Source: Verrucomicrobiota bacterium (GTDB taxonomy: Bacteria > Verrucomicrobiota > Verrucomicrobiia > Palsa-1439). Taken from it: a DNA stretch of 64,000 nucleotides. The position numbers were made by a program, and so were the translations under genes. The stretch lies in NCBI GenBank assembly GCA_037146675.1, contig JBAWWR010000001.1, forward strand, positions 260 to 64,259, read 5' to 3'. Under the pieces are notes generated by a model. That model did no database searches and was not told where the DNA came from. It saw only the letters and a program-made list of their open reading frames with translations. Below are positions 11,142-64,000 of the stretch, piece by piece. Within the stretch, counting starts at the first letter, position 1, and every line of letters begins with the position of its first letter.

Positions 11142-11142
11142 G

Positions 11143-12288
11143 ATGCTCGAACGACTTGCTGGTTTTTTCACCTCCCTGCGGTTGACCGTTGTATTGTTAG
11201 CGCTCGGCTTGGTGTTGGTGTTTTGGGGAACAATAGCGCAAGTGCATCTCGGGTTGTACCAGGCGCAGAATGAATTTTTCCGGAGTTTTTTCATTTACTG
11301 GTCACCGGCCGCATCAGGATTGCGGATCCCCGTTTTTCCAGGCGGTTATTTAATCGGTGGGTTGCTGCTGGCTAATTTAGTAGTCTACAACCTTCGCTTT
11401 GATCGATCCGTCAAGCGCCAACCTGGTCTTGTGGTGATTCACATTGGCGTTGGATTGTTGCTCATCGGCCAATTATTAACAGATGTTTTCTCAGCCGAAA
11501 GCATGATGCACATGCGTAATGGTGAGACCAAGAATTACTCAGAGGCATCGAGTCATTTCGAATTGGCTGTGGTGGATAAAACAGAAGTGGCAACGGATCA
11601 AGTCGTGGCAATTCCTGAGGCGTTGCTTCAACGAAAAGCAGTGATTCGCCATCCGAATCTGCCATTCAATATTCAGGTGCGCACATTTTACAGCAACTCA
11701 GCGCTAGTAGAAAAACCGCAAGAAGGTTTTACACAGCTCAACACCTCCGGTGGTTTTGGTGCCGGCGCTTGGTGGCGTGAATTGCCGCACGAAGCTGAAA
11801 CGGATCGACGTGATATGCCGTCCGCCATTGTGGAGCTACGCACTCCGCAGGGTTCGCTGGGAACTTATCTAGTGTCCGCCTACCTTGATCAACCGCAGGT
11901 GGTAAGTCTCAACGGTCGCCAGTACGAGTTGACGTTGCGCCCTGAACGCTTCTACAAACCGTTTAATCTACATCTGGTCGAGTTCCGCCACGATAAGTAT
12001 CCCGGCACAGATATCCCTAAGAACTTTTCCAGCCGCGTTCGTGTGCAGCGACCGGATACCGGCGAAGATCGCGAAGTGTTGATCTATATGAATAATCCAC
12101 TGCGCTACAATGGCGACACTTATTACCAAGCGAGTTTCGATACGGACAATCAAGGCACAGTGTTGCAAGTTGTCCATAATCCCAGCTGGCTCACGCCATA
12201 TTTCTCGTGCGTCCTAGTAGGCTTGGGATTGGTCTGGCAATTCCTACGCCATCTCATCGGATTCGCCGCAAAACGCAAAGCAACATGA
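11143..12288 (+). CDS. ccsB: cytochrome c biogenesis protein CcsB/ResB-like (short form)
   Basis: 381 aa. ResB-like N-terminal TM helix, a periplasmic domain and C-terminal TM helices. The stop overlaps the ccsA ATG (ATGA). Confidence 0.65.
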   Translation: MLERLAGFFTSLRLTVVLLALGLVLVFWGTIAQVHLGLYQAQNEFFRSFFIYWSPAASGLRIPVFPGGYLIGGLLLANLVVYNLRFDRSVKRQPGLVVIHIGVGLLLIGQLLTDVFSAESMMHMRNGETKNYSEASSHFELAVVDKTEVATDQVVAIPEALLQRKAVIRHPNLPFNIQVRTFYSNSALVEKPQEGFTQLNTSGGFGAGAWWRELPHEAETDRRDMPSAIVELRTPQGSLGTYLVSAYLDQPQVVSLNGRQYELTLRPERFYKPFNLHLVEFRHDKYPGTDIPKNFSSRVRVQRPDTGEDREVLIYMNNPLRYNGDTYYQASFDTDNQGTVLQVVHNPSWLTPYFSCVLVGLGLVWQFLRHLIGFAAKRKAT

Positions 12289-14219
12289 AATTTCTACTCA
12301 AGAGTCTGCCGTGGTTGTTTCTGGGGCTATTCGCCGCAGAGATTGGCGTTGTCATGTTGCCGAAGCCAGATGCTGAATTCCACACCGCAGAATTCGGTCG
12401 GCTGCCGGTCTTGCTTAATGGACGAATTCAACCATTTGATTCTGTTGCACGGAATTCACTGCTGCAAATCCGTAGTACCGGTGATGTGCCACTAGAAGAA
12501 GTACCGGCTTGGCAGTTTTGGCACCACCCACAGAAACTGAAATCGACTGCGTGGTTGCTCGAGGTGTTTTTCCTATCAGATGTAGCCGATACGCGGCCGA
12601 TTTTTCTGATTCACCACCCGGACATTATTAGCGAGTTGAAGCTCGGCGAGAAGGGTGTCGAAAAATCCGGTTTGCGCTACTACACGTTTGCCGAACTCGG
12701 ACCGGTCTTGAAGGAGATTTCTGATCAGGCTAACCAAGCGGGAAATATCGATGACGCGCAGCGCACGACATACCAGAAGCAAATACTTAAACTTGCCAAT
12801 GCGCTTGGCTTGTATCAGCAACTCAAAAACAGCATTCAGCCCGAAGGCACTGAGGACTTTGTTAAATTACTGGCGGCTTACCAAGCGGCAGCGCGCGCGC
12901 AGCAAGCGGGGCAAAAAACTGACGCTGAGGCGCTCCGTAAGCTAGCGGCTATCACTCAACAGTTTGAGAATGTCTCAAAAGACGCTTTGCCGCTTGTTAT
13001 TCCGCCCGCTAATCCTGCGGATAAAGATGCCTGGGTCAATGTCGGTACGAGCCTGCTCCGCGCTAATCATGCTGGCGCAGCTCTTCATCCTGCCACCGCA
13101 TTTTTTGCCCGAATGGCGACCACCTTTGGGCGCGATGACGCTGCGGGGTTCAACAGCGCTCTAGCTGATTATCGAAATTGGCTGACACCAAATTTCGCGC
13201 ATGAACTGGCAAAAGGCAGGGCGGAGTTTTATTTCAACCAGATCAAAATCTTTCTGCACGCGACCATTATTTATATTTTTGCCTTTGTACTGGCGGGTGC
13301 TGCCTTGTTGCTCTTTGCTCCGGCACCACGGCTTTCAGAGTCGTTGCGCCGCTCAGCTTATTACCTCATCGGGTTGGCGTTTATCGTGCACACCTTCGGT
13401 CTTATCTTCCGGATGGTGCTAGAAGGTCGCCCGCCGGTCACAAATCTTTATTCGTCCGCCATCTTTATTGGCTGGGGGGCGTGTGGGTTGGGCTGGGTGC
13501 TGGAACGAATTTATAAAATTGGTCTCGGTAGCGCCGTGGCCGGGCTGGCTGGCTTCGTTACACTGCTCATCGCGCACAACCTTGCGCTTGGCGGCGATAC
13601 AATGGAAATGCTCCGCGCCGTCCTCGATACAAACTTCTGGCTGGCTACACATGTAGTGACTGTAACGCTGGGGTATTCCTCAACATTTGTAGCTGGCACA
13701 CTGGCGATGGCGTACGTCGTGCTCGGTGTTTTTACGCCGTTGCTTCTGACAAAAGTTGGCGCAGACAAGGATGCCACACTTAGTTCGGCCTTGGCCAAGA
13801 TGGTCTATGCCATTGTTTGTTTTGCCACATTGTTCAGCTTTATTGGCACCGTGCTTGGCGGCATCTGGGCTGACCAATCGTGGGGGCGTTTCTGGGGGTG
13901 GGACCCGAAAGAAAATGGTGCCTTATTAATCGTTATCTGGAATTCACTTATCCTCCACGCCCGGTGGGGGCGACTGGTAGGCGCGCGCGGTCTGATGAAC
14001 CTTGCGCTCTTTGGTAGCATCGTTACCGCATTCTCCTGGTTCGGCGTAAATATGCTTGGAATCGGCTTGCATAGCTACGGGTTCATGGATGCCGCCTTCA
14101 AATGGCTGATGCTCTTTAATATCAGCCAAGCACTCTTTATTCTACTCGGCCTACTGCCATTGCGCCTGTGGAAAAGCTTGAAGAAGTTAACGCCGGACCA
14201 ACACGCGAACCTGAACTAA
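12285..14219 (+). CDS. ccsA: cytochrome c-type biogenesis protein CcsA with a long N-terminal periplasmic extension
   Basis: C-terminal WWD domain (WGRFWGWDPKENGAL) and a conserved His-containing TM core. An N-terminal extension of about 330 aa follows a TM anchor. Start is taken as the ATG giving MKFLLKSLPWLF, overlapping the ccsB stop. Confidence 0.8.
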   Translation: MKFLLKSLPWLFLGLFAAEIGVVMLPKPDAEFHTAEFGRLPVLLNGRIQPFDSVARNSLLQIRSTGDVPLEEVPAWQFWHHPQKLKSTAWLLEVFFLSDVADTRPIFLIHHPDIISELKLGEKGVEKSGLRYYTFAELGPVLKEISDQANQAGNIDDAQRTTYQKQILKLANALGLYQQLKNSIQPEGTEDFVKLLAAYQAAARAQQAGQKTDAEALRKLAAITQQFENVSKDALPLVIPPANPADKDAWVNVGTSLLRANHAGAALHPATAFFARMATTFGRDDAAGFNSALADYRNWLTPNFAHELAKGRAEFYFNQIKIFLHATIIYIFAFVLAGAALLLFAPAPRLSESLRRSAYYLIGLAFIVHTFGLIFRMVLEGRPPVTNLYSSAIFIGWGACGLGWVLERIYKIGLGSAVAGLAGFVTLLIAHNLALGGDTMEMLRAVLDTNFWLATHVVTVTLGYSSTFVAGTLAMAYVVLGVFTPLLLTKVGADKDATLSSALAKMVYAIVCFATLFSFIGTVLGGIWADQSWGRFWGWDPKENGALLIVIWNSLILHARWGRLVGARGLMNLALFGSIVTAFSWFGVNMLGIGLHSYGFMDAAFKWLMLFNISQALFILLGLLPLRLWKSLKKLTPDQHANLN

Positions 14220-42364: not shown

Positions 42365-43126
42365 GTGGGCGCTCGGTTATTGTGCCAGCCAATGTCGCCA
42401 ACTGCAACATCGCCGCGTGTCGCGGTCATCACCTGCAAGGTGTTGGAGGAAGAGATTGACCGTTTTGCCGACGGGCTGACGCACATTGTCCGGATCGAGA
42501 AACTCGATTACGCCTTGCACGTCGAGCCGGACAAACTCCGCGCCACGCTGCAAGCCACCATTGACCGCGTCGAGGCGGAGACGAACGCCGAGATTATCGT
42601 TCTCGGTTACGGCTTGTGCAGTCGCGGCACCGAGGGCGTGAAGACGAACCGTTGCCGGCTCGTCATCGCCCGCGCCCACGATTGCATCACGCACTTGCTC
42701 GGCTCGAAAGAGCGTTATGCCGAATATGTAAAGCAGCATCCCGGCACCTATTGGTATAGCGTCGGCTGGAATAAGCATCACGTTCCGCCCGGCAAGGAAC
42801 GCCACGACCAATACCGGCGCGAGTACGTCGAGAAATATGGCGAGGATAACGCCGACTTTTTGATGGAGACCGAACAGGCTTGGTTCAAATCCTACAACAA
42901 CGCCGCATTCGTTCACCTCGGTGTCGGCGACGTTGACCGGCAACAGGCGTACACCAAACAATGCGCGGACTGGCTCGGCTGGAAATGCGATTGCCAAGCC
43001 GGTAACCCGGCCTTACTCAAAGATTTACTTACCGGCCCGTGGGATAACTCCCGCTTTCTTGTCGTTGAACCCGGCCAGACCTTTCGGATGGTGGCCGATG
43101 ATCGCGTGATCGAGCCAGTGCCATGA
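42365..43126 (+). CDS. DUF1638 domain protein
   Basis: GTG start at 42365, or ATG at 42392. About 245 aa. DUF1638-like pattern with conserved Cys/His (ITCKVLEEEID, LGYGLCSRG, HDCITHLLG). TGA overlaps the ATG of the next gene. Confidence 0.7.
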   Translation: MGARLLCQPMSPTATSPRVAVITCKVLEEEIDRFADGLTHIVRIEKLDYALHVEPDKLRATLQATIDRVEAETNAEIIVLGYGLCSRGTEGVKTNRCRLVIARAHDCITHLLGSKERYAEYVKQHPGTYWYSVGWNKHHVPPGKERHDQYRREYVEKYGEDNADFLMETEQAWFKSYNNAAFVHLGVGDVDRQQAYTKQCADWLGWKCDCQAGNPALLKDLLTGPWDNSRFLVVEPGQTFRMVADDRVIEPVP

Positions 43127-44859
43127 ACCTCACCATCGAGACCGCCAAAGGACGGCAACTCCTCACCGTGACCGACACGGAACGCGCGTTGCGCCTGAGC
43201 GACTTGCTCCGGCGGAAACATTTCCCACTCAACACCCGTTGCGGTCAGCGCGGCCTGTGCGACGGTTGCGTGATTGAGTTGCTGGCCGGCCATCTCACCA
43301 ACATGGCCACCGGCGAAACCATTGCCGGCACCGGTCAGGCCGTGCGCGGTTGCGAATACCGGCTCGCGCACGATGGGCCGGTCACGATGCGCATCCCGCC
43401 GCGGTCGTTGCTCGCCTACGAACCGCAAGTCGTCAGCGAATTCAAAACCAACGTCCCGCGCGCCCACGATCCACTCTGGCAGCAAGTCGCGATACCGGCG
43501 AACGGCCTGGCTGGCATCCAACGCCGGCGGCCGTTGCGGAGCGCGGTAGAACTACCGGCCGGCGCCGTGGCAACGCTGGAATACCGGTGCGATCACTGGC
43601 TGGTGACCGGCGTGTCAACGACACCAGAACCGCAACCGCTCGGCGTGGCGGTGGACATCGGCACGACGACGGTGGCGTTGCTCGTTTGCGATTTACGCGA
43701 TGGACGGGTGCTTGCCGGCGCGGCGAACTTTAACCGGCAAATGCACCTCGGCGACGATGTGCTGACGCGCATCAACCTGTGCAGCACCGACCCGACGCAA
43801 CTCAAGCATTTACAGGATTTGATCATCGAGGAAACGCTGAAGCCGTTGCTCAACGAGGCACTCGGTAAGGTCGGCGCGACGCTGGCGCAAGTCAGGTGTA
43901 TGACCGTCGCGGCAAACACGACGATGCTCCATCTGTTTGCCGGTATCGATCCGTCTTCAATGGGACTGGCGCCGTTCACAGCGACTTTTTTAGAGCACCG
44001 GCTCGTGACGGTGCCGGGTTGGCCGTTCACGATTCATCTGCTGCCGGGCGCGGCGGCGTATGTCGGTGCCGATTTAACGGCGGGAGCGTTTGCGACCGGG
44101 TTGGTGTACGACGAAGGTCCGTCTTTGCTGGTGGACGTCGGGACAAATGGCGAAATTATTCTTAAACGCGGTCAGCATCTTTCTGGTTGTGCGACGGCGG
44201 CCGGGCCGGCATTTGAAGGAGCCGGCCTGACCAACGGCGTGCGCGCCACAGATGGCGCGATTGCGCATATCAAATTGGAAGGCAACCCGTTTGCGGTCAC
44301 GATTGAAAAAATCGGGCAGGAGATGCCGATCGGTTTGTGCGGGACGGCGTACGTGGATTTTCTGGCGGATGGACGGGCGGCCGACTTGCTCAACGAACGC
44401 GGCCGGTTTACCGAAGCGTTTACCGAGCAGACCATGCCGTGGAAGGATTACGGGCGGGCACTGCGCGTGGCGACCGGTATCGGCAAGTCTGATATCGTAG
44501 TGACGGAGGTTGACATTGCCGGCTTGTTGCAGGCGAAAGCCGCCATCGCCGCCGGCATTCTGACATTGCTCGAACGCAGCGGTTTGACGCCGGCACAGAT
44601 TAAGAAACTCTACCTTGCCGGCGGCTTTGGCTTGCACCTCAACCGGGTCAATGCGATTGCGTGCGGGTTGTTACCGGGATTTGTACCAGAACAAATTGAG
44701 GTGGTCGGTAACACGAGCCTTGCCGGCGCGTATCTGGCACTGCTGGATTGCGGCGCGTTGGATGAGATTGCGAAGGCCGGCAAGAAGATGGATGTGGTGG
44801 AGTTGAATCTGGATGCCGGCTTTGAAGACCGGTACATCGAGCAGTTGTCACTGCCGTAA
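43123..44859 (+). CDS. RACo-type reductive activator of corrinoid enzymes (N-terminal [2Fe-2S] ferredoxin plus ASKHA/DUF4445 ATPase)
   Basis: 578 aa. Ferredoxin Cys cluster CGQRGLCDGCVIELL...C, then a sugar-kinase/Hsp70/actin-fold region (VDIGTTTVAL, VDVGTNGEI, AGGFGLHL). Confidence 0.8.
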   Translation: MNLTIETAKGRQLLTVTDTERALRLSDLLRRKHFPLNTRCGQRGLCDGCVIELLAGHLTNMATGETIAGTGQAVRGCEYRLAHDGPVTMRIPPRSLLAYEPQVVSEFKTNVPRAHDPLWQQVAIPANGLAGIQRRRPLRSAVELPAGAVATLEYRCDHWLVTGVSTTPEPQPLGVAVDIGTTTVALLVCDLRDGRVLAGAANFNRQMHLGDDVLTRINLCSTDPTQLKHLQDLIIEETLKPLLNEALGKVGATLAQVRCMTVAANTTMLHLFAGIDPSSMGLAPFTATFLEHRLVTVPGWPFTIHLLPGAAAYVGADLTAGAFATGLVYDEGPSLLVDVGTNGEIILKRGQHLSGCATAAGPAFEGAGLTNGVRATDGAIAHIKLEGNPFAVTIEKIGQEMPIGLCGTAYVDFLADGRAADLLNERGRFTEAFTEQTMPWKDYGRALRVATGIGKSDIVVTEVDIAGLLQAKAAIAAGILTLLERSGLTPAQIKKLYLAGGFGLHLNRVNAIACGLLPGFVPEQIEVVGNTSLAGAYLALLDCGALDEIAKAGKKMDVVELNLDAGFEDRYIEQLSLP

Positions 44860-44861
44860 GG

Positions 44862-44939
44862 TGGTCGGGACGACAGGATTTGAACCTGCGACCTCCTACG
44901 CCCAAGGCAGGCGCTCTAATCCAAGCTGAGCTACGTCCC
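44862..44939 (-). tRNA. tRNA-Pro (anticodon TGG)
   Basis: Reverse complement reads GGGACGTAGCTCAGCTTGGATTAGAGCGCCTGCCTTGGGCGTAGGAGGTCGCAGGTTCAAATCCTGTCGTCCCGACCA. Anticodon loop is CTTGGGC. CCA is encoded. Confidence 0.85.
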
Positions 44940-45121
44940 GTCTCAGTTAGTATTGTCGGGAAATTTCGTCCGGGGCAAGTCAATTGTCAAAGAGACGTCG
45001 AGAAATCTTCCGCCATTTATCGCCGCAACGGAAGCGGACAAGAGTGCTAACGAAGGTTATTTTGATGCCGCCCTAATTTGACTATTGTGGCGAGGTGTGA
45101 AATTATGATTCAGGTAATATT

Positions 45122-53993: not shown

Positions 53994-54587
53994 ATGACAC
54001 ATCAACTCCCAAAACTACCGTACGCACTCGACGCTCTCGAACCGCACATTGACGCGACTACCATCGGGATCCACTACGGCAAACATCACCAGACCTACGC
54101 CGACAACCTAAACAAGCTCGTCCCCGGTACCGAGTTTGCTGTTGCCTCGTTGGAAGAGATCGTCCTCAAGGCGCAAGGCCCGATTTTTAACAATGCCGCA
54201 CAGGTGTGGAATCACACTTTCTACTGGGAAGGTATGAAGCCCAACGGCGGCGGCGAACCACAAGGCGAACTGCGTGCGGCAATCGAGAAATCATTCAGCA
54301 ACTTTGCCGGCTTCAAGGAACAACTCTCCAAGATTTCCGTGACGCAATTTGGTTCTGGCTGGGGCTGGTTAGTCAAAAAGAAAGACGGTGTCCTCGCCGT
54401 GGTCCAGACCGGAAACGCCGCGAATCCGTTGACCACCGGTGACGTGCCCCTTTTGACCTGCGACGTCTGGGAACACGCCTACTACCTCAAGTATCAGAAT
54501 CGCCGAGCCGATTACGTCGGCTCGTGGTGGAACGTCATCAACTGGGATGCCGTCGCTGCACGCTTCAACGCCGCGAACAAAAAATAA
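53994..54587 (+). CDS. Fe/Mn superoxide dismutase
   Basis: 197 aa. LPYALDALEPHID, HHQTY and DVWEHAYY motifs. Confidence 0.95.
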   Translation: MTHQLPKLPYALDALEPHIDATTIGIHYGKHHQTYADNLNKLVPGTEFAVASLEEIVLKAQGPIFNNAAQVWNHTFYWEGMKPNGGGEPQGELRAAIEKSFSNFAGFKEQLSKISVTQFGSGWGWLVKKKDGVLAVVQTGNAANPLTTGDVPLLTCDVWEHAYYLKYQNRRADYVGSWWNVINWDAVAARFNAANKK

Positions 54588-54607: not shown

Positions 54608-55489
54608 CTATTCGCTCTTTCCGGCAACCGGCAATTGTAGATGCTGGATGATGGGGTTGCCGGATATGAGGAAACCGGACTGCATCGAAGCCCGGTAGTT
54701 CCGCGGTGAGAGGCCGTACACCTTGTGGAACTTATTTGAGAAGTGGTACGGCGATGCGAAACCGACGGTATCGGCCACTTCTCGAATCGGCAGATTGCTG
54801 CGCACCAGCAACGACGCGGCGCGCTCTAACCGGGCGAGACCGGCGCATTCGAGCGGACCGAGATTGAGGTGGCGGCGAAACAGTCGACACAGATATTCAG
54901 GCGAGACGTGTGCTGCTTTGGCCAGTGCCGGCAATGTAATTGGTGCCGGTGGATCATGGGCGAGCGCCTGGCGAATCGCTCGCAGCGCGTTTTGGATGGC
55001 CGGCGGAAGATTCTCCAACGGCTCGAGCGCAACCGCCGTTTGGTTGCCGAGATAGCCGCGCAACATCAATGTGACTGCCGCCTCCAATAACGGTGCGTGG
55101 TCCGGTGTCTGGTTTTGTGCCATTCCAATGACATATCGGAACAGCGGTCGAAGAATATCTTCCGACGCCATGGTTCGCGATAGTGGCCATTCATTCAATG
55201 GCGGCCAGCCGGGATCTGAATAGTCAAAGCTGAAATGAAAAAAAGCCTGAATGGTGCGCCGCGTTGAATCCCAATCATAACGATCGGTGATGCCGGGGCG
55301 CCCGAGCAACACAGTGCCGGCAGGTGCTTCAATTGGCCGTCCATCAAAGCTGGCCTTGGCGTGGCCATCAATAATCCACACAAATTCAAAATCGTGTAAT
55401 AGCCGTGGACCGAATGTTGCGCCCGGTGGATAGGCAGCAATACCGGCGTTGCCGACGAGTAAGCCTTCAGTTGTGACGGAGCTCGACAT
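54608..55489 (-). CDS. AraC-family transcriptional regulator (cupin-like sensor plus HTH_AraC)
   Basis: 293 aa. C-terminal AraC HTH signature (EVADTVGFASPYHFSNKFHKVYGLSP). Divergent from the corrinoid gene cluster. Confidence 0.85.
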   Translation of the reverse strand: MSSSVTTEGLLVGNAGIAAYPPGATFGPRLLHDFEFVWIIDGHAKASFDGRPIEAPAGTVLLGRPGITDRYDWDSTRRTIQAFFHFSFDYSDPGWPPLNEWPLSRTMASEDILRPLFRYVIGMAQNQTPDHAPLLEAAVTLMLRGYLGNQTAVALEPLENLPPAIQNALRAIRQALAHDPPAPITLPALAKAAHVSPEYLCRLFRRHLNLGPLECAGLARLERAASLLVRSNLPIREVADTVGFASPYHFSNKFHKVYGLSPRNYRASMQSGFLISGNPIIQHLQLPVAGKSE

Positions 55490-55545
55490 GTCAATTACCG
55501 GTAGGTTTCCGTAATTTTAAGGTATTGTCAAGAATGCGGACTTCT

Positions 55546-55564
55546 GATAGTTCTGACGATAGTT
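55546..55564 (+). promoter_or_regulatory. candidate AraC-type operator: direct repeat GATAGTT-N5-GATAGTT in the divergent intergenic region
   Basis: ctGATAGTTctgacGATAGTTgcgac lies between the AraC start (55489) and the corrinoid-protein start (55627). An SD aggag sits 8 nt before ATG 55627. Confidence 0.3.
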
Positions 55565-55626
55565 GCGACTTGCCGACGGTTGTAGCTGGTCAATTCACAG
55601 CAGGCGCAACACTAACAGGAGACAAA

Positions 55627-56259
55627 ATGAGCGACCTACAGAAATTGTCCGAGTTCGTGGAAAAAGGCAACCGCAACGAAGCGAAGCGGTTGACCAATGA
55701 GCTGCTCGCTGCCGGAATGAAGCCCCTCGATGTTGTCGAACAAGGCTTGGTGCCTGGGATGAATTCCATCGGTGAGAAATTCAAAAACAACCAGATTTTT
55801 GTCCCCGAAATGTTGATCGCCGCCCGTGCCATGAAAGAATGCATGGCCATCCTCGAACCCCTGCTTGTTGAAGCCGGTATCAAGCCCAAATTCACCGCCG
55901 TAGTTGGCACGGTCCAGGGCGACCTCCACGACATCGGCAAAAACCTGGTGGCGATGATGTGGAAGGGCGCCAACTTCGGCGTCGTCGACCTCGGCACCAA
56001 CGTGTCGCCGGAAAAATTCATCGCTGCTGCCAAAGAACACAACGCCCAAGTCATTGGCCTTTCCGCATTGCTCACCACCACCATGCCGGCGATGAAGACC
56101 ACAATTGCCGCCGTTAAAGCCGCCGGTCTCAAGGGCGTCAAAGTCGTCATCGGCGGCGCGCCAATCACTAACGAGTTCGCTATGGAAATCGGTGCCGACG
56201 GTTTCGCGCCCGATGCCGCGAGCGCCGTGGATATGGTCCGGAAACTTATGGCGGCGTAA
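55627..56259 (+). CDS. corrinoid (cobalamin-binding) protein, MtaC/MtbC-like
   Basis: 210 aa. B12-binding_2 helical cap plus Rossmann B12-binding domain with the DxHxxG motif (GDLHDIGKN). Confidence 0.85.
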   Translation: MSDLQKLSEFVEKGNRNEAKRLTNELLAAGMKPLDVVEQGLVPGMNSIGEKFKNNQIFVPEMLIAARAMKECMAILEPLLVEAGIKPKFTAVVGTVQGDLHDIGKNLVAMMWKGANFGVVDLGTNVSPEKFIAAAKEHNAQVIGLSALLTTTMPAMKTTIAAVKAAGLKGVKVVIGGAPITNEFAMEIGADGFAPDAASAVDMVRKLMAA

Positions 56260-56284
56260 GCGCGCCCCCACGAACAAATTAGCC

Positions 56285-57238
56285 GTGACTCCACGCGAAC
56301 GCTTTATTGCCGCGTTAGAATGCCGTCCACTCACCGGTCGCGTTCCGCATTTTGAGCTCGTGTTTTTTCTGACGATGGAAGCGTTTGGTAAGGTCCACCC
56401 GAGTCATCGCAGTTACCATCAGTGGTTGCAAATGGAAGAAAAAGAACGCGCCTTGCACCGGCGCGACATGGCGGACCTCTACCTCGCCACGGCGGAACGC
56501 TTTGAGCACAGCGCGATTTTTATCCACCCCAATCCGAACAATATCGAAGAGACTTGCCGACTCATCGATCTGATTCGCGAACGCAGCGGCGATCGATACT
56601 TCTTGATGCGGCACGGCGACGCAACGTTCGAATTACCAAATGGCGAACGGATGGTCGAATTTGCTTACCGTCTGGCGGACGAACCGGAGAAAGTCCACGC
56701 CGAGGCGCAGGCAGCAGTGGACGGCGCATTACAACGTGCTGAAGCCTACGCCAAGCATGGCGAACTGGATGGCTTTGCACTGTGCTCAGATTACTGCTTC
56801 AATTCCGGTCCATTTCTTAGCCCGGCACAGTTTGGTGAATTCATCACGCCCTATCTCGCCAAACTTACAAAAGGTTACCGGGATCTCGGTTTCTACGTTA
56901 TCAAGCACACCGACGGCAACATTATGCCGGTCCTCGACCAGCTGGTGCAGACCAATCCGCACGCGCTTCACTCGCTCGATCCCCAAGGCGGCGTGGACAT
57001 GGCGGAGATTAAAAGGCTCGTTGGCCAGAAAGTCTGCCTCATTGGCAATGTCAACTGCGGCTTGGTTGATACCGGCACTGATGAGCAAGTCATTGAGTCT
57101 ACCCGTTACGCTCTACGGCACGGGATGCCGGGTGGTGGTTATATTTTCTCAACGAGCAATTGCATCTATACCGGCATGCGTTTGGCCCGGTATGAACTAA
57201 TGCTCGATGTCTGGCGCAAAGAAGGCAACTATTCGTGA
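56285..57238 (+). CDS. UroD/MtaA-superfamily methyltransferase-like protein, paralog 1
   Basis: GTG start (MTPRERFIAALECRPL). About 317 aa. Conserved HTDG block (VIKHTDGNIMPVLDQL). 4-nt overlap with the next gene. Confidence 0.8.
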   Translation: MTPRERFIAALECRPLTGRVPHFELVFFLTMEAFGKVHPSHRSYHQWLQMEEKERALHRRDMADLYLATAERFEHSAIFIHPNPNNIEETCRLIDLIRERSGDRYFLMRHGDATFELPNGERMVEFAYRLADEPEKVHAEAQAAVDGALQRAEAYAKHGELDGFALCSDYCFNSGPFLSPAQFGEFITPYLAKLTKGYRDLGFYVIKHTDGNIMPVLDQLVQTNPHALHSLDPQGGVDMAEIKRLVGQKVCLIGNVNCGLVDTGTDEQVIESTRYALRHGMPGGGYIFSTSNCIYTGMRLARYELMLDVWRKEGNYS

Positions 57239-58347
57239 CCGCGTTCCGGGAGCTCACCGGTTGGACCGCTAATCTACAGAGAATTGCCAGTCAGCCGCTT
57301 GAGTTTTGTCCCGATTTACCAGCCATCGCGCGCCGGTATGAAGCGTGGTGGGCGTGCGCCTGCACTGACCGTCCGATTTTCATCGGCTCCGCCAACGCCA
57401 ATCCCGCCCGCCCGATTACCAAGCGGTTGGAATTGCTCCACCGTCCCGAGGAATGGTTTGCCGCCAAACTGCAAGACCTGCATCAAACCTACCGGGTCGG
57501 CGATGCGTTGCCGCACATTCGCGCCGACTTCGGTCCGGTCTTACTGGGTGGCTTGTTGGGTGGCACAATCGAGTTTGGTTCTGGCACGACTTGGACGCAC
57601 CCGTTTATCAACGACGACTGGTCGAACGCACCAGATTGGCAATTACGCGACGACCATCCCCTGCTCCAACGGCTCCGCCAACTGACGGAATTGGTTGCCC
57701 AAGATTGTGCTGGCCGGTACCTCGTCTGCACGCCGGACCTTGGTGGGTCGGCGGATGTGCTGCTGAATTTGCGCGGCTCGTCGGCGTTATGTCTTGATGT
57801 GGTCGAACAATCTGACCGAGTGCGTGGCGCGATTGAGGCAATCTATCCGGTGTGGGAACGTACGTTCACGGAGCTTTATCGAATTGCCACTACGAACAAC
57901 GCCGGTTTAATTCATTGGCTGGGATTATGGGCGAGTCGTCCGTATATGATCCCGGCGTGTGACTTCAATTTCTTAATCGGCCCGGACGAATTTGAAAAGA
58001 TCTGCTTACCGGACATTGCCAAACAAGCTGCAACCGCTGGCCGCGCTGTATTTCATCTCGATGGTCCCGGCGCGGCTCGACATATTGATGCGTTGCTGGA
58101 AGTGCCAGAGTTACAGGCAATCCAGTTCGTCCCCGGCAGCGTGACGCCGTCGGTACTGCCGTGGGTGTCGATGTTCCGAAAAATTCAGACGGCCGGGCGC
58201 GCCTTATACGTCGTCAGCCCGGTCGATGAAGTGTTGGCTCTCTGTGACGCCTTGCGGCCGGAAGGATTGGCCATTAACTGCTGGCCGAGCACGCCGCGGG
58301 CTGCCGACGACCTATTTGCACAATTTTCGCGGAGATACAACACGTGA
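57235..58347 (+). CDS. UroD/MtaA-superfamily-like protein, divergent subgroup, paralog 2
   Basis: 370 aa. HLDG block (AVFHLDGPGAARHIDALLEV). Clearly homologous to 61457..62551 (shared RYLV..PDL and CDF motifs). Confidence 0.7.
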   Translation: MTAFRELTGWTANLQRIASQPLEFCPDLPAIARRYEAWWACACTDRPIFIGSANANPARPITKRLELLHRPEEWFAAKLQDLHQTYRVGDALPHIRADFGPVLLGGLLGGTIEFGSGTTWTHPFINDDWSNAPDWQLRDDHPLLQRLRQLTELVAQDCAGRYLVCTPDLGGSADVLLNLRGSSALCLDVVEQSDRVRGAIEAIYPVWERTFTELYRIATTNNAGLIHWLGLWASRPYMIPACDFNFLIGPDEFEKICLPDIAKQAATAGRAVFHLDGPGAARHIDALLEVPELQAIQFVPGSVTPSVLPWVSMFRKIQTAGRALYVVSPVDEVLALCDALRPEGLAINCWPSTPRAADDLFAQFSRRYNT

Positions 58348-59354
58348 CATCACGGGATCTTGTTCGGCAAACATTGAATTGGGAAAATCCGCTCCGGGTG
58401 CCGCGCGAATTGTGGATGTTACCGGCGGCAACGGCGAAGTATCCAGCGGAATGCGTCGCATTGGCGCGCGAGTTCCCTGCGGACTTTGCCGGCATTGACG
58501 GGCACACGCGCGAACTGGCGCCGACAAAAGGCGACTGGTACGCAGTCGGCGAGTACGTGGATGCGTGGGGCTGCACGTTCATCAACATCCAATACGGCGT
58601 CCACGGCGAAGTGAAAGACCCGCTGGTGAAAGATTGGATGACCGACCGCGCGAGGATTCATATACCACGCGAGTGGCTGACAATTGACCGGGATGCAATC
58701 AATCGCGATTGCGCGGCGACGACTTTGTACACAGCTGGCGGGGCAAACCCGCGCCCATTTGAACAACTCCAGTTTTTACGCGGCACGGAAAATCTGTTCA
58801 TGGATTTGCTGGACCCGGAGCCGGTCATGCAGGCGTGCGTGAGCGAGATGCACGAGTTTTACTGCGAACAATTAACGCGCTGGGCCAAGACCGACGTGGA
58901 TTCGCTGCGGTTCATGGATGACTGGGGTTCGCAACGCGCACTGCTAATCGCGCCGGCGTTGTGGCGGCAATGGTTCAAGCCGCTGTACCGGGATTACGTT
59001 CAAATCGCGCACAGCCACGGCAAAAAGATTTTCATGCATTCCGACGGCTACATTCTCGATATCATCCCGGATCTAATCGAGATCGGTGTGGACGCGTTGA
59101 ACTCGCAAATTTTCTGCATGGGACTGGACCGGCTGACGCCGTTTGCCGGTAAGATCACGTTTTGGGGTGAGATCGACCGGCAATGCCTGTTGTCGGAAGG
59201 GACACCGGCGGAGATTGACCAAGCGGTGCGCAACGTGCACCGGCAGCTTTGGCGCAACGGTGGTTGCATCGCGCAATGCGAATTCGGCCCCGGCGGCAAG
59301 CCGGCAAATGTCCGGCAAGCCTTTCAATCGTGGAATGAGGTTACACAAGCATGA
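58344..59354 (+). CDS. UroD/MtaA-superfamily methyltransferase-like protein, paralog 3
   Basis: 336 aa. N-terminus MTSRDLVRQTLNWENPLRVP and HSDG block (IFMHSDGYILDIIPDLIEIGVDALN). Confidence 0.8.
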   Translation: MTSRDLVRQTLNWENPLRVPRELWMLPAATAKYPAECVALAREFPADFAGIDGHTRELAPTKGDWYAVGEYVDAWGCTFINIQYGVHGEVKDPLVKDWMTDRARIHIPREWLTIDRDAINRDCAATTLYTAGGANPRPFEQLQFLRGTENLFMDLLDPEPVMQACVSEMHEFYCEQLTRWAKTDVDSLRFMDDWGSQRALLIAPALWRQWFKPLYRDYVQIAHSHGKKIFMHSDGYILDIIPDLIEIGVDALNSQIFCMGLDRLTPFAGKITFWGEIDRQCLLSEGTPAEIDQAVRNVHRQLWRNGGCIAQCEFGPGGKPANVRQAFQSWNEVTQA

Positions 59355-60397
59355 CACCACGCGAACGCTGGTTGGCCTTATTTGATGGGCGTAAGCCGGA
59401 CCGGCACGTCACCGACTACTGGGCGACTAACGAGTTCCACGCCAAACTCCGACAAGCTGTCTGTATTACCGGCGACAGCGACAAGCCGCTGTTGGAAAAA
59501 CTCGGCATTGACCGGCCATTTCATCTCGGGCCAACTTGGAAATACAAACATCATCCCGATGATCCGTTGGCGAACGAATGGGGCATCCGGTTTGCAGAGG
59601 TTGACTACGGCACCGGCAGCTACGGCGAGGCAGTGCACTTCCCGTTGGCAAAATGCGACAGCACAGCTGACGTTCATGCGTTTCACTGGCCAAGCCCCGA
59701 CGACTACGATTATTCCGGCATCGCCGAAAAGCTCAGACAGAACAACGGTTACCGGATTGTCAAAGGCGGTAGCTATGAGCCGTTTTTGTTGTACTGCTGG
59801 ATGCGTGGAATGGAGCAAGCTTTCGAAGACATGCTCGTTAATCCGGAGATTATTACCGCAGCGCTGGGATATATTTTTGATTTCCACTACGAACTCAACC
59901 GGCGCATCTGGCAGGCTGGAAAGATTGACATGATGTATCTCGCTGAAGACCTTGGTGGCCAGACTGGACCGTTGATCAGTTTGGAGGCTTACCGTCGCTT
60001 TTTGCTGCCAAATCAGAAAAAGGTAGCAGCACTGGCGCGGTCGTTTGGCATCCGCGTGTTTTACCACACCGATGGCGCAGCGCGAATGTTCCTCCCGGAC
60101 CTCGTCAACGAAGTCGGGATCGATATCCTCAATCCGTTGCAATGGCGGTGCCCCGGCATGGACTTGTCGGGCTTGGTGCGCGATTACGGTGACCGGCTGA
60201 TCTTCCACGGCGGGATTGATAACCAGCAAACGCTCCCGTTCGGCACGGTGGAAGACGTACGCAAGGAAGTTCGCGAAGTCGCGGCGGTCATGCGCGATTC
60301 ACGGTGGATTTGCGCGCCGTGCCACAACATCCAAAGCGTCAGCCCGGCCGCGAATGTCATCGCCATGTACGAAACTATTCGGGAAATTCTAGTATGA
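59351..60397 (+). CDS. UroD/MtaA-superfamily methyltransferase-like protein, paralog 4
   Basis: 348 aa. N-terminus MTPRERWLALFDGRKPD and HTDG block (VFYHTDGAARMFLPDLVNEVGIDILN). Confidence 0.8.
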   Translation: MTPRERWLALFDGRKPDRHVTDYWATNEFHAKLRQAVCITGDSDKPLLEKLGIDRPFHLGPTWKYKHHPDDPLANEWGIRFAEVDYGTGSYGEAVHFPLAKCDSTADVHAFHWPSPDDYDYSGIAEKLRQNNGYRIVKGGSYEPFLLYCWMRGMEQAFEDMLVNPEIITAALGYIFDFHYELNRRIWQAGKIDMMYLAEDLGGQTGPLISLEAYRRFLLPNQKKVAALARSFGIRVFYHTDGAARMFLPDLVNEVGIDILNPLQWRCPGMDLSGLVRDYGDRLIFHGGIDNQQTLPFGTVEDVRKEVREVAAVMRDSRWICAPCHNIQSVSPAANVIAMYETIREILV

Positions 60398-61470
60398 AAT
60401 TGACAGGTCAAGAGCGCGTCAACCGCATGTTCGAACGCCGCGACCACGATCGCGTGCCGCGCCACGACTCGTTTTGGGCTGAGACTGTTCAGCGCTGGCA
60501 GAAGGAAGGTCTGACTGGCGGCGCGCCGGCTGCGCTGGAGCGATTGCAAAACGATATTCACAGCTTGAACTGGCTCTGGCCGATGGCGTACCCGGGCCGC
60601 GAGGAAGTTGTGAGCATGGATGCGGAGACGCGCGTAGTGCGCGACGGCAACGGTCGGCTCGCGCGGTTTTGGAATAACAAGAGCGGCACACCGGAACACC
60701 TCGGCTTTGAGTGTGACTCGCGCGAGAAATGGGAGAAAACTTTCAAGCCCGCCTTGCTGTCAACCGGCTTGCAACTCGACCCGGCGGCGATTGCCAAGGA
60801 GTTCCGTAATGGCCGGGCCGGCGGCCGCTGGTGTCATCTAACCGGCGTCGAAGGATTTGAGGAAACTCGCTCGCTCATGGGCGACGAAATTACTTTGATG
60901 GCGATGGTTGAAGATCCTGACTGGGTGCGCGATGTCTCGCGGACATTCACTGATGTCATACTATTCAACCTGAATGCCGCCCTAGCGACTGGCATCGCTC
61001 CGGATGGCCTTTGGATCTACGGCGACATGGCGTTCAAGACTTCCACAATGTGTTCGCCGCAGATGTACCGTGACTTGATCTGGCCTGACCACAAACGTCT
61101 CGCCGATTGGGCGCACGCGCACAACATGAAATTCATCTATCACACCGATGGCGACGTCAACGGCGTGTTGGACATGTACGTCGCCGCCGGCTTCGATTGC
61201 CTACAACCGTTGGAATGCAAAGCCAGCATGGACCTGCGCCGGCTCGCGCCGCAGTACGGCGACCGGCTCGCATTCTTTGGCAATATCGATGTGATGGTCT
61301 TAATGACTAACGACCGTGCCCGCATTGAAGCCGAAGTCAAAGCCAAGCTCGCCGCCGGCATGGCGACCAAGGGTTACATCTATCATTCCGATCACTCTGT
61401 CCCACCGCAAGTGAGTTGGGAAACCTATCAGTTCATCATTTCACTTTTGAATAAATATGGCCGGTACTGA
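60394..61470 (+). CDS. UroD/MtaA-superfamily methyltransferase-like protein, paralog 5
   Basis: 358 aa. ATGA overlap with the previous gene. HTDG block (FIYHTDGDVNGVLDMYVAAGFDCLQPLE). Confidence 0.8.
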   Translation: MKLTGQERVNRMFERRDHDRVPRHDSFWAETVQRWQKEGLTGGAPAALERLQNDIHSLNWLWPMAYPGREEVVSMDAETRVVRDGNGRLARFWNNKSGTPEHLGFECDSREKWEKTFKPALLSTGLQLDPAAIAKEFRNGRAGGRWCHLTGVEGFEETRSLMGDEITLMAMVEDPDWVRDVSRTFTDVILFNLNAALATGIAPDGLWIYGDMAFKTSTMCSPQMYRDLIWPDHKRLADWAHAHNMKFIYHTDGDVNGVLDMYVAAGFDCLQPLECKASMDLRRLAPQYGDRLAFFGNIDVMVLMTNDRARIEAEVKAKLAAGMATKGYIYHSDHSVPPQVSWETYQFIISLLNKYGRY

Positions 61471-62551
61471 ACCAACCCTCGCTTGGAAACCAGATTGGGG
61501 CGTGGCACGCGCCGCACTGACCGGCTGGTGGGAACACCGGGCGTTGGCGTTGCATGTCACTGCGCCGAAAGATCAGCCGTGGGAAAACATCCCCCACCCC
61601 GGTCAACCACGAGATCTCCAGCAACAATGGGCAGATGTTCCGCATTGGGTGGCCCGCAACATGGCTGAGGCCGCGCGCATATTTTACGGTGGCGTAGCTT
61701 TCCCGCGGTTATGGGCCGACATCGGCGGGCCCGGCAGCCTCGGCTTATTTCTCGGCGCGAAAGGCGTGCTCGCTCCGAGTACCGTCTGGTACGAGCCGGT
61801 TATTCACGAACCCGAATCATTCCCGGTATTGCGGCTCGACAAAACCTGCGACTGGTGGCGCCGGCACTTCGCGCTCATCGAACTCGCTCAACAACAGGCG
61901 CGCGGCCGGTATCTCGTCGGTTTCCCTGACCTGATCGAGAACGTTGATACGCTTGCCCAGCTGCGCGACGGCCAATTATTGCTGACGGATTTACTCGAGC
62001 GCCCGGCCTGGGTGCAGGCGAAGCTCGCGGAAATCAACACCGCCTTCTTCGAGTGCTACGATGCGTTTTGGCAAAAGCTCCGTGATCCGTGGGGCGGTTC
62101 AGCCTGGGACGCGTTTGAACTCTGGGGCCCCGGTAAGATTGCCAAGCTGCAATGTGATTTTTCCTGCATGATTTCCGAACAGATGTTCCGCGAGTTCGTC
62201 GTTCCCGGCCTGACCGAGCAATGCGAGTGGCTGGACTATTCGCTCTACCACCTCGACGGGACCAACGCTGTTCACCAACTAAACGCCTTGCTGGAAATCG
62301 AAGCGCTCGATGCCATTGAATGGACGCCGCAAGCCGGTCTGCCCGGCGGCGGTACGCCACAATGGTATGATCTCTACCGGCGCATCAAAGCCGCCGGTAA
62401 GAGCGTCCAGGCCGTTGGTGTCCAACCAGAAGAAGTTATGCCGCTTATTGACGCTGTCGGTGCCGAAGGTTTGTTCATCTGGGTCAACGCGTCGACCGAA
62501 ACAGTCGCGCGTGCCCTGCTCCACCGGACCGGCTGGCAAGGTGATGTCTGA
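61457..62551 (+). CDS. UroD/MtaA-superfamily-like protein, divergent subgroup, paralog 6
   Basis: 364 aa. HLDG block (SLYHLDGTNAVHQLNALLEIEALDAIEW). Homologous to 57235..58347. Confidence 0.7.
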   Translation: MAGTEPTLAWKPDWGVARAALTGWWEHRALALHVTAPKDQPWENIPHPGQPRDLQQQWADVPHWVARNMAEAARIFYGGVAFPRLWADIGGPGSLGLFLGAKGVLAPSTVWYEPVIHEPESFPVLRLDKTCDWWRRHFALIELAQQQARGRYLVGFPDLIENVDTLAQLRDGQLLLTDLLERPAWVQAKLAEINTAFFECYDAFWQKLRDPWGGSAWDAFELWGPGKIAKLQCDFSCMISEQMFREFVVPGLTEQCEWLDYSLYHLDGTNAVHQLNALLEIEALDAIEWTPQAGLPGGGTPQWYDLYRRIKAAGKSVQAVGVQPEEVMPLIDAVGAEGLFIWVNASTETVARALLHRTGWQGDV

Positions 62552-62743
62552 CCTCGCAACCGTTGGGTTTCGTCAGCAAGCATTAGTTAAAGCCAACGCC
62601 GAACTGACCAAACTAAAATGCGGCATTATATGTTCACCAGACTTAGTGTGATATTTTTACTTGGGTTACTGACACCGTTCCACCCCGGCTTCGGTCAAGA
62701 ACCACCAATGCCGCTGGGCACACCGACGGAGCCACAAGACTAG

Positions 62744-64000
62744 TGGCCGACGCAGCCGAGCAAGCTTCCATTTGTTCACACGCTGTTTACCAGCGACATG
62801 GTACTGCAACGTGACGTCGCCGATCCGATCTGGGGCTGGAGCAGACCGGGTGATCAGATTACGGTCACCGTTCAGCATTCCAAGGGACCCGGCGAGACCG
62901 CGACGGCCGTGGCCGGCGCGGACGGCAAATGGGTGACGAAGATCGGCCCGTTGCCGGCGGGTGGGCCAGTATCGCTCGCCATTCAAGGGGCCACGCAGAA
63001 GGTTGTGTTGACGAATGTGCTGGTGGGCGATGTCTGGCTGTGTGCAGGCCAATCGAACATGCTCATCCCGGTGCGCACGGCGGCCAACGCCGAGGATGAA
63101 ATTAAGCAGGGCAACCATCCGGAAATCCGCTCGTTCACCGTGGGCTTCTGGCCGTCGTTAGTGCCGGTGGCGGTTCCATTACCGTCGGTCTGGGACGTCT
63201 GTACCCCGGCCAAGGTGGGCGCATTCAGTGCCGTCGGTTACTACTTCGCGCGCGAAATCAACCAGGTCGAGAAGATCCCGATCGGCATCATCCACAGCTC
63301 CGTCGGCGCGACCACAGCCGAGGTTTGGATCAGCGGCGACGGGCTGCGCAAGCACATGCCCCATGACTTTCACGCGCCGCTTGACCGGCTGGCCAAGGAG
63401 AGCGGTGAGCCGGGCCGTGATTATTTCCAAGACGTTGAGAACTGGGCCGCGACCGTCGACCAGGCCAGCGCCCAGCAGTATTACACCTCCGCGACCACCG
63501 TGAACACGAACGACTGGCAGAACCTCCCGGTGCCGAAGCCGTGGAAAGAAGCCGGGCTGACCAACTTCAACGGGCTGGTCTGGTTCCGCACCTCCGTCGA
63601 GATTCCGGACGCTATGGCTGGGAAGCCAGTGATCATCTCCCTGTCGCAAATCGCCAGCACCGACATTACTTGGTTTAACGGCCGGCTGGTGGGCGTCACG
63701 CAAATCAGTGGCCGGCACCGCAAGTACCAGATTGACGGTGAATGGGTGAAGCCCGGCAAGAACCTGCTGGTCGTGGCCGTGGTCAGCTCGAATGCGTCCG
63801 CCGGCTTCTTTGGCGCGGGCCAGAATATGACCGTGCGTTCCACGACCGAAGACAAGAGCATCCCGCTTGCCGGGACGTGGCAGGTCAAACCGGGAACAGC
63901 CATGAAAGACATCACTCTGCCTTTCCCCCGGCCGCAACTGGGCTATTACAAAACCATTACCGGCCTGTACAACGGGATGATCGGGCCGCTGGCGCCCTTT
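62744..64000 (+). CDS. sialate O-acetylesterase-like (SASA/DUF303 SGNH-type carbohydrate esterase), partial at the window end, preceded in frame by a TAG
   Basis: FTSDMVLQRD N-terminus and GDVWLCAGQSNM catalytic Ser motif. An in-frame upstream segment 62630..62740 encodes a signal-peptide-like MFTRLSVIFLLGLLTPFHPGFGQ, but it is separated from the mature region by TAG at 62741-62743. Confidence 0.7.

Follow-up and report, generated by a model that had tools for sequence, protein, structure and literature searches.

We analyzed a 64-kb stretch of one Verrucomicrobiota contig (the window, to which all gene absences below refer) and found an operon in which a single B12-binding corrinoid protein is followed by six proteins of the uroporphyrinogen decarboxylase (UroD) family or fold. 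This locus is probably a modular operon, or hub, for corrinoid-dependent methyl transfer. What the data show directly are the order of the genes, the domains, folds, and motifs of their products, and the synteny across phyla. The general scheme of corrinoid methyl transfer is known, and what is new here is a widespread, multi-paralog corrinoid/UroD cluster type that is uncharacterized in the phyla that carry it, namely Verrucomicrobiota, Planctomycetota, and Armatimonadota. A preliminary description of this DNA had stated that no such system is known to have been characterized for organisms of this kind and, consistent with that statement, a literature search found no published description for bacteria of the Planctomycetes-Verrucomicrobia-Chlamydiae (PVC) group or for Armatimonadota. 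Throughout, cor denotes the corrinoid protein gene, g1–g6 the six downstream genes, and HcyMT a homocysteine S-methyltransferase, while L-numbers (L001, L115, and so on) label the related loci compared. The relevant features of the window are as follows.

42365–43126, plus strand: DUF1638 protein, 253 amino acids (PF07796, 139 bits), a helper of corrinoid methyltransferase systems
43123–44859, plus strand: RACo/RamA-type corrinoid reductive activase, 578 amino acids, with RACo_C_ter and Raco_middle domains
54608–55489, minus strand: AraC/XylS-family regulator, 293 amino acids, divergent from the operon
55490–55626: divergent control region between the regulator gene and cor
55627–56259, plus strand: cor, corrinoid (B12-binding) carrier, 210 amino acids, with PF02607 and PF02310
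56285–57238, plus strand: g1, UroD-family protein, 317 amino acids, GTG start, HTDG at 208
57235–58347, plus strand: g2, divergent protein of predicted UroD fold, 370 amino acids, HLDG at 274
58344–59354, plus strand: g3, UroD-family protein, 336 amino acids, HSDG at 232
59351–60397, plus strand: g4, UroD-family protein, 348 amino acids, HTDG at 239
60394–61470, plus strand: g5, UroD-family protein, 358 amino acids, HTDG at 250
61457–62551, plus strand: g6, protein of the g2 family, 364 amino acids, HLDG at 265

The open reading frame map agrees with the gene coordinates given in the preliminary description. A 25-nt gap separates cor from g1, and start and stop codons overlap at all five junctions within g1–g6: by 4 nt at four of them (GTGA, GTGA, ATGA, and ATGA) and by 14 nt at the fifth. 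The 14-nt overlap had been reported correctly, but the count of five 4-nt overlaps was one too many. From the overlaps we infer co-transcription. The start assigned to g1 is supported by its ortholog in L115, which is likewise called at 317 amino acids. Scans of the region for sigma-70 promoters and terminators returned promoter- and terminator-like sites no more commonly than chance, and neither a cobalamin riboswitch nor any other Rfam element was detected in the window. Horizontal acquisition of the operon was considered and rejected, as its GC content (0.56–0.59) is in line with that of the window and its flanks consist of housekeeping genes. A near-identical locus is also present in an ENA assembly (218-kb contig), in the NCBI metagenome-assembled genome GCA_964588885.1, and in two further samples.

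The overlaps and the domains of the first protein together support an operon of closely coupled genes with a true corrinoid carrier at its head. This protein matches PF02607 (B12-binding_2) with 82.9 bits and PF02310 (B12-binding) with 96.1 bits, both passing threshold, and the expected DxHxxG motif is present as DLHDIG, starting at residue 99, with SxL and GG elements downstream. Such a combination of a B12 cap and a Rossmann B12 domain with DxHxxG is that of the carrier in three-component methyltransferase systems. Its best NCBIfam match is MtgC_2, at 203 bits against a cut-off of 370, and the closest solved structure is 1Y80, annotated as a predicted cobalamin binding protein (E 7e-58).

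The ATP-dependent reductive activase (RamA/RACo) of a three-component system is encoded in the window as well, at 43123–44859, where the protein matches RACo_C_ter with 231.6 bits and Raco_middle with 136.6 bits. Its gene overlaps that of the DUF1638 protein by 4 nt, and the pair, overlooked in the earlier reading, lies ∼11 kb upstream of the operon on the same strand. The split MetH/MtgC hub has the same layout, a corrinoid protein that stands alone and is aided by RamA-like and DUF1638 proteins, except that the partners here are 11 kb away. L010 and L015, both close relatives, show the order RACo-DUF1638-AraC<>cor, with the pair immediately upstream of the AraC gene and on the opposite strand. 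Compared with this order, the pair here has moved 11 kb away and been inverted with respect to the operon, so that a rearrangement in this lineage is implied. Genetic work on Phaeobacter connects a RamA-like protein and a DUF1638 protein with its split B12-dependent methionine synthase, and DUF1638 mutants of P. inhibens are rescued by added methionine (PMC5764234); in Ruegeria, the abundance of both proteins rises with the MtgC corrinoid hub (PMC12478193). A tRNA gene (44865–44940, minus strand) follows RACo.

Gene-neighborhood conservation, a check that the preliminary description had proposed, provides strong contextual support for corrinoid-dependent methyl transfer. A scan for the corrinoid protein with one genome per species yielded 343 relatives, and neighbors within 10 kb of cor were counted for the best 80 (61–95% identity), with the neighboring families verified against Pfam. 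These 80 loci come from Verrucomicrobiota, Planctomycetota (Phycisphaerae, Tepidisphaerales, and Pirellulaceae), and Armatimonadota, and cor recurs beside UroD-family genes in all three phyla. At least one UroD-family gene, and up to eight, was found in 63 of the 80 loci, RACo in 50/80, DUF1638 in 46/80, a MetH-type HcyMT (PF02574) in 36/80, MtaB in 18/80, an ortholog of the AraC-family regulator in 13/80, and a pterin-binding protein with methylenetetrahydrofolate reductase (MTHFR) in 7/80. The operon of L115, a Verrucomicrobiae metagenome-assembled genome, comprises 15 coupled genes in the order cor-MtaB-12 UroD-like genes-HcyMT (L115:1-18824), and that of L097 reads cor-MtaB-g5-g6-g4-U6-U5-g2-g6like-HcyMT. 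The L115 operon also includes a 398-residue protein of no detectable family (L115:11082-12278) and is adjoined by a sulfatase gene and RACo.

The presence of six paralogs behind one carrier had been called unusual. That view is not supported, given up to eight UroD-like genes in the 80 loci and 12 in L115, and multi-paralog MtaA-like clusters have been published for anaerobic Firmicutes (PMC10418091). Judging from the loci compared, one carrier with many UroD paralogs is a common and conserved architecture in these phyla; since it is widespread and not peculiar to one genome, the locus is more ordinary than first held. Such clusters occur in hundreds of genomes of heterotrophs that are very common in lakes, peat, soil, and groundwater, and were seen in metagenome-assembled genomes of the genera Lacunisphaera, Nibricoccus, Fimbriimonas, and Chthonomonas. 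A different set of genes occupies the 10 kb downstream of cor, in place of g1–g6, in L015, L016, L019, L020, L023, and L030, namely MTHFR (with DUF5981) and a pterin-binding protein, and several of these loci add formate-tetrahydrofolate ligase, a major facilitator superfamily (MFS) transporter, and HcyMT. By its predicted functions this set is a folate one-carbon (oxidation-like) module, and the AraC partner is retained in L015, L016, L019–L021, and L023.

The preliminary description assigned all six downstream proteins to the UroD/MtaA family. For g1, g3, g4, and g5 this assignment is supported by Pfam URO-D matches of 66.1, 38.4, 67.5, and 64.9 bits, respectively, all of them restricted to the C-terminal half of the model and starting at profile position 139 or beyond; for g2 and g6, neither Pfam nor NCBIfam returned a credible match. 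An AlphaFold2 (AF2) model of g2, built with 28 homologs (pLDDT [predicted local distance difference test] 92.3), was compared with the PDB by Foldseek, and the top hits were 4ay8 and 4ay7 (MtaA-like methyltransferase, E 9e-9), followed by HemE structures, with template modeling (TM) scores of ∼0.6. The g6 protein is 28.6% identical to g2 (BLASTP, E 3e-30). From the modeled fold of g2 and the similarity of g6 to it, g2 and g6 would therefore constitute a divergent UroD-fold family that has no Pfam model, so that UroD family or fold extends to all six proteins. A full HMMER scan of this family yielded 2,744 representatives at 50% identity, of which 858 reach E≤1e-30; one member is mislabeled "Trimethylamine corrinoid protein 2" in one source. 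The products of such clusters are currently annotated only as "uroporphyrinogen decarboxylase family" or "hypothetical".

A motif check confirmed the earlier observation of an H-[TSL]-D-G core, which is found in 6/6 of the downstream proteins. Alignment of the g2/g6 profile with the g5 profile by hhalign was weak (probability 16%) and placed HLDG against HTDG, and the invariant residues of the g4 family include H239, D241, C267, C321, C324, and H325. Among the proteins with more than one NCBIfam hit, the profiles lean toward MtaA and away from HemE: g1 (PRK06252, 49 bits; mtaA_cmuA, 46.7 bits; hemE, 21.2 bits), g4 (mtaA_cmuA, 47.2 bits; no hemE match), and g5 (40 bits on a methyltransferase-type model; hemE, 22.8 bits) all score higher on MtaA/CmuA-type profiles. 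The best score of this type for g3 is 16 bits, and g2 and g6 have none. Matches to HemE itself (TIGR01464), confined to g1 and g5, reach at most 22.8 bits against a cut-off of 303. HemE proteins carry the N-terminal substrate-binding signature PxWxMRQAGR (PROSITE), and its MRQAGR element is absent from all six proteins.

Near-identical N termini (MTPRER) had been taken as a mark of recent tandem duplication. We reject this explanation on several grounds. Pairwise identity among g1, g3, g4, and g5 is only 21.5–29% (BLASTP), no significant BLASTP similarity links g2 and g6 to the remaining genes, and every paralog has orthologs of 45–90% identity, for five of the six (all but g3) in other phyla too, that are far closer to it than are its operon neighbors. 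The MTPRER-type N terminus also recurs in other URO-D subfamilies of the related loci, and is thus a feature of the family. Orthologs of g1 (72–92% identical) are found in cor clusters of Verrucomicrobiota and Planctomycetota; those of g2 (58–91%) occur both within cor clusters (L009, L048, L050, L060, L089, L090, L094, L097, L105, and L115) and alone; those of g4 are 56–86% identical, with the 57–65% ones in Verrucomicrobiota and Planctomycetota; and those of g6 (61–76%) lie in the cor clusters L010, L017, and L097. In related loci, orthologs of g1, g3, and g6 are 61–92% identical. We therefore regard the cluster as assembled from ancient subfamilies. Close relatives with 88–95% corrinoid identity (L009, L089, and L090) differ by the presence or absence of g3 and g6, with g3 absent from L009 and L090 and present in L089, indicating modular gain and loss as expected of substrate modules. 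A strain variant of g2 was also observed in a JGI (Joint Genome Institute) metagenome (L003:5782-6894, corresponding to window 57235–58347), in which a single-nucleotide polymorphism at window position 57994 creates the nonsense change E254* and splits g2 into calls of 253 and 84 amino acids.

Among the partners of the corrinoid protein, g5 is the most conserved. Orthologs of 50–77% identity occur in 28/80 cor loci in all three phyla, mostly right after cor, and the top 120 database relatives are at least 67% identical. An AF2 model of g5 (pLDDT 90.8) matched HemE and MtaA structures about equally well (TM 0.65–0.70), so that the fold leaves its function undecided; the protein also carries an HSDH motif near its C terminus (H331/D333/H334). 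Three minimal modules place g5 or U6, its nearest relative, in a recurring context: cor-HcyMT-g5-DUF1638-RACo (L018), RACo-DUF1638<>cor-g5-HcyMT (L070), and cor-U6-HcyMT (L072). When these are matched one-to-one with split MetH (homocysteine, pterin, and B12 modules, RamA-like protein, and DUF1638), g5/U6 sits at the place of the pterin module, making it a candidate for the corrinoid:acceptor methyltransferase (MT-II) that is otherwise missing from the operon. Further, g5 was never found together with a pterin-binding gene (0/28 g5 loci; 7 loci with a pterin-binding gene). More speculatively, then, g5 may be a folate-side MT-II, perhaps reversible, that fills the slot of the MetH folate module.

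This context raises the alternative that the system is mainly anabolic, with the carrier acting as the B12 module of a split B12-dependent methionine synthase and g5, perhaps with other paralogs, feeding methyl groups for methionine only. An HcyMT of the PF02574 family follows the UroD genes in 36 of the 80 related loci, compact modules of the L018 type mirror the genetically defined set of split MetH, RamA-like protein, and DUF1638 (PMC5764234), and the Ruegeria carrier is shared by methionine synthesis and catabolism (PMC12478193). We nevertheless consider a purely anabolic role unlikely. The window has neither a PF02574 nor a pterin-binding gene, six to twelve paralogs and a presumably inducible AraC-type regulator are more than a single housekeeping reaction would seem to call for, and close Verrucomicrobiota relatives tie the AraC-cor pair to MTHFR, formate-tetrahydrofolate ligase, and an MFS transporter, an arrangement that resembles one-carbon oxidation.

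Under the modular methyl-transfer reading that we favor, the AraC-type regulator would control the promoter of one B12 carrier gene and of six translationally coupled genes for UroD-family or UroD-fold enzymes, while RACo, with DUF1638, would keep the cobalt of the carrier in its active Co(I) state. Several of the paralogs (g1–g4 and g6) would serve as substrate-specific methyl donor:corrinoid methyltransferases (MT-I), each using a different methylated compound as its methyl source to form CH3-Co(III) on the carrier. The methyl group would then pass to homocysteine or tetrahydrofolate, possibly via g5 and an HcyMT encoded elsewhere; the window itself lacks the HcyMT with which related genomes complete the cycle. 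Methoxylated aromatics, methanol-related compounds, methyl-sulfur compounds, and methylated sugars are possible methyl donors. Precedent exists in that UroD-superfamily MT-I enzymes, some with zinc and some without, act on methoxylated aromatics or haloalkanes (PMC13222342), and that in the aerobe Ruegeria a stand-alone corrinoid hub serves both methionine synthesis and betaine demethylation (PMC12478193).

A bolder extension of this scheme, which we offer tentatively and regard as doubtful as a whole, treats the H-x-D-G UroD-fold subfamilies (g1–g4 and the g2/g6 family) as a new class of corrinoid-dependent demethylases. With these, the abundant, oxygen-tolerant Verrucomicrobiota, Planctomycetota, and Armatimonadota of fresh water and soil would gain access to the O-methyl groups of aromatics derived from lignin or of methylated sugars from plants and algae. 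In this proposal g5/U6 would be a UroD-fold substitute for the pterin module of methionine synthase, and one B12 carrier would link many donors to methionine and folate one-carbon metabolism. If methyl harvesting is indeed the role of these clusters, they would represent an unrecognized B12-dependent route of methoxy and methyl turnover outside strict anaerobes, would link the need for vitamin B12 in these phyla to their carbon and methionine metabolism, and would add several new corrinoid methyltransferase subfamilies, one of which comprises ∼2,700 sequence clusters and lacks a Pfam model. The g5 protein in turn poses the question of a UroD-fold protein standing in for the MetH folate module.

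Several observations weigh against a methyl-transfer role. UroD family or fold and conserved synteny, as expected of a TIM-barrel methyltransferase, were both seen, but no paralog reaches a curated methyltransferase cut-off: scores on the MtaA/CmuA (TIGR01463) and methylcobamide:coenzyme M models are at most 49 bits against cut-offs of 235–600. MtaA-type enzymes such as MtaA and MtbA bind zinc through H-x-C and a further cysteine (H-x-C...C), and none of the six proteins has the canonical H-x-C motif. HTDG of g5 aligns with HICG of the MtaA-like structure 4ay7, with Asp in place of Cys, and this change from H-x-C to H-x-D-G suggests a different metal site or none. PDB searches with phmmer and with profiles of the g4 and g2 families found no credible match, the g5 family profile gave only marginal hits (HemE, MtaA, and CdmB, E 0.005–2), and the fold search did not separate methyltransferase from decarboxylase clades. 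No recognized MT-II or acceptor enzyme was found in the 64-kb window, which lacks homologs of PF00809, PF02574, and MtaB and with them both an acceptor methyltransferase and the homocysteine and pterin modules of a split MetH. The mutual exclusivity of g5 and pterin-binding genes is statistically weak (naive p∼0.04) and phylogenetically confounded. The nonsense allele of g2 in a natural strain variant indicates that not every paralog is under strong selection, and at least one is dispensable in some populations. Finally, orthologs of g2 and g4 (59–65% identity) also occur singly with no corrinoid gene within 10 kb. Such stand-alone genes were seen in L005 (Fontivita pretiosa), where the gene follows a PIG-L deacetylase and a glycosyltransferase, in L006 (Anaerobaca lacustris), where an SSF transporter gene immediately precedes it and a sulfatase gene is nearby, and in L007 (Hydrogenedentes).

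Some of these points would also fit if the UroD-fold proteins were decarboxylases or other TIM-barrel enzymes acting on, for example, glycan-derived substrates, with the adjacency of cor being incidental or regulatory: the Cys of H-x-C is replaced, curated methyltransferase cut-offs are not exceeded, the g5 model is matched by HemE as well as by MtaA structures, and the lone g2 and g4 orthologs sit beside transporters, sulfatases, or glycosyltransferases. We judge this explanation very improbable. In three phyla these subfamilies are repeatedly syntenic with genes for the corrinoid protein, RACo, MtaB, and HcyMT, hemE scores fall below MtaA/CmuA-type scores or are nil, the HemE signature is missing throughout, and the Pfam matches are confined to the C-terminal half. 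Moreover, a lone gene can use a distant carrier, as Fontivita has both, ∼1 Mb apart (its corrinoid protein ortholog is in L055).

The direction of transfer also deserves consideration, since corrinoid methyl transfer is reversible. Methyl groups from methyl-folate or methanol could flow outward to small thiols, selenides, metalloids, or phenols, in detoxification or the formation of volatiles. In this respect the architecture parallels clusters with a proposed methyl-sulfur or selenide metabolism (type 1 mlp; PMC10418091), and MtaB, which would supply methanol-derived methyl groups, is present in 18 of the 80 related loci. All six proteins here, however, have H-x-D-G and not the H-x-C that binds the thiol-activating zinc of MtaA; the window operon contains H-x-D-G subfamilies only, while the H-x-C-G (MtaA-like) subfamilies U5 and U8 of related operons are absent from it. 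The usual terminal gene, in addition, is a homocysteine or folate acceptor module. Outward flow is thus improbable.

Comparison with known systems places the locus near several of them without a full match to any. Acetogens and Desulfitobacterium have many MT-I paralogs per genome. The O-demethylase and dehalogenase systems of anaerobes (OdmB/VdmB/MtvB/MtoB/CdmB) share with the locus a two-domain carrier, UroD-superfamily TIM-barrel enzymes, and an ATP-dependent activase (PMC13222342). Unlike those systems, the operon has no pterin-binding MT-II, its paralogs are not detectably near CdmB (the only PDB hit has E 2.1), six to twelve MT-I-like genes accompany each carrier in one operon, and the regulator is of the AraC type. 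The hosts differ too, being Verrucomicrobiota, Planctomycetota, and Armatimonadota in place of strict anaerobes, and the window has genes for superoxide dismutase (SOD) and cytochrome c biogenesis. With the split methionine synthase/MtgBCDE of Rhodobacterales (Phaeobacter and Ruegeria) the locus shares a stand-alone corrinoid hub with RamA-like and DUF1638 helpers (PMC5764234, PMC12478193) and, in related loci, a homocysteine module; the known hub occurs in aerobes. The donor enzymes are nonetheless of UroD fold here, whereas MtgB belongs to the MttB superfamily, the carrier falls below the MtgC cut-off, and, unlike in split MetH, the pterin module is missing wherever g5 is present.

The type 1 mlp clusters described by Kountz and Balskus likewise combine one corrinoid protein, a Ram/RACE activase, and several UroD-superfamily MtaA-like paralogs of ancient lineage, with no folate methyltransferase in the cluster (PMC10418091). 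They sit, however, in obligate anaerobes, mostly Firmicutes, and Mlps are ∼30% identical to coenzyme M methyltransferases (PMC10418091), whereas the window proteins are far more remote and lack H-x-C. A likeness to MtaABC is seen in the 18 related loci in which an MtaB homolog (545 bits, PF12176) lies by cor and is followed by UroD genes at the place of MtaA, but the window has no MtaB and no paralog with H-x-C or at the MtaA cut-off. Coenzyme M is unlikely as the acceptor because the hosts are bacteria. HemE shares the TIM-barrel fold (Foldseek TM 0.6–0.7), yet the genes lie in an operon with a B12 carrier and not with heme genes.

As the preliminary description had it, an AraC-family regulator is divergent from the operon: it lies on the minus strand, head-to-head with cor, and contains HTH_18 (77 bits), HTH_AraC (63 bits), and, weakly, AraC_binding (22 bits) Pfam domains. 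Its orthologs in 13 of the 80 loci are 64–93% identical and are likewise head-to-head with cor, the divergent pair is also found in three close metagenomic relatives (L089, L090, and L094), and the pairing is kept whatever genes lie downstream. Within the control region, a repeat search identified a 16-nt direct repeat, GTCAATTnnCnGnAGG, at 55490–55505 and 55589–55604, which brackets the putative cor promoter and whose first copy abuts the araC start codon; the pair is conserved only among close relatives, and the two copies are identical to each other in L009. Between them lies the block GGTATTGTCAAGAA (55521–55534), with a −35-like TTGTCA. It is the most conserved element in an alignment of 14 orthologous intergenic regions, across which its core, GTATTGTCA, is retained apart from one or two changes. 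About 15 nt downstream of the TTGTCA hexamer begins a 12-nt tandem, GATAGTTSYGAC (55546–55569), which is kept among close relatives and only partly conserved in orthologous promoters. The GATAGTT repeat noted earlier is real insofar as two copies 12 nt apart are present in the intergenic region, where they belong to this tandem; the 7-mer itself shows no enrichment in the window (4 copies vs. 2.9 expected), and its conservation in orthologous promoters is partial. The repeat GTCAATTnnCnGnAGG is the better operator candidate, and the elements of the control region may have operator or promoter functions.

The gene after g6 (62618–64000, plus strand) corresponds to a 702-residue protein with a signal peptide that resembles CE20-like carbohydrate or sialate O-acetylesterases (PDB 9ega, E 6e-130). 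A link to glycan decoration through this esterase was considered and rejected, as the gene does not lie beside cor clusters elsewhere, one partial hit excepted. The polysaccharide or methyl-sugar substrate link proposed earlier lacks specific support, and methyl sugars as substrates are a speculative idea. Codon 42 of the esterase is TAG in the window (polymorphism at 62742) and TGG (Trp) in the otherwise near-identical L001 and L002, so that W42* is either a nonsense variant or a sequencing error. Elsewhere in the window, positions 10065–14219 hold a 358-residue open reading frame that has no Pfam match, followed by ResB-like and CcsA-like cytochrome c biogenesis genes, and an Fe/Mn-SOD is encoded at 53994–54587. 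The predicted SOD and cytochrome c biogenesis genes point to a respiring, oxygen-tolerant host.

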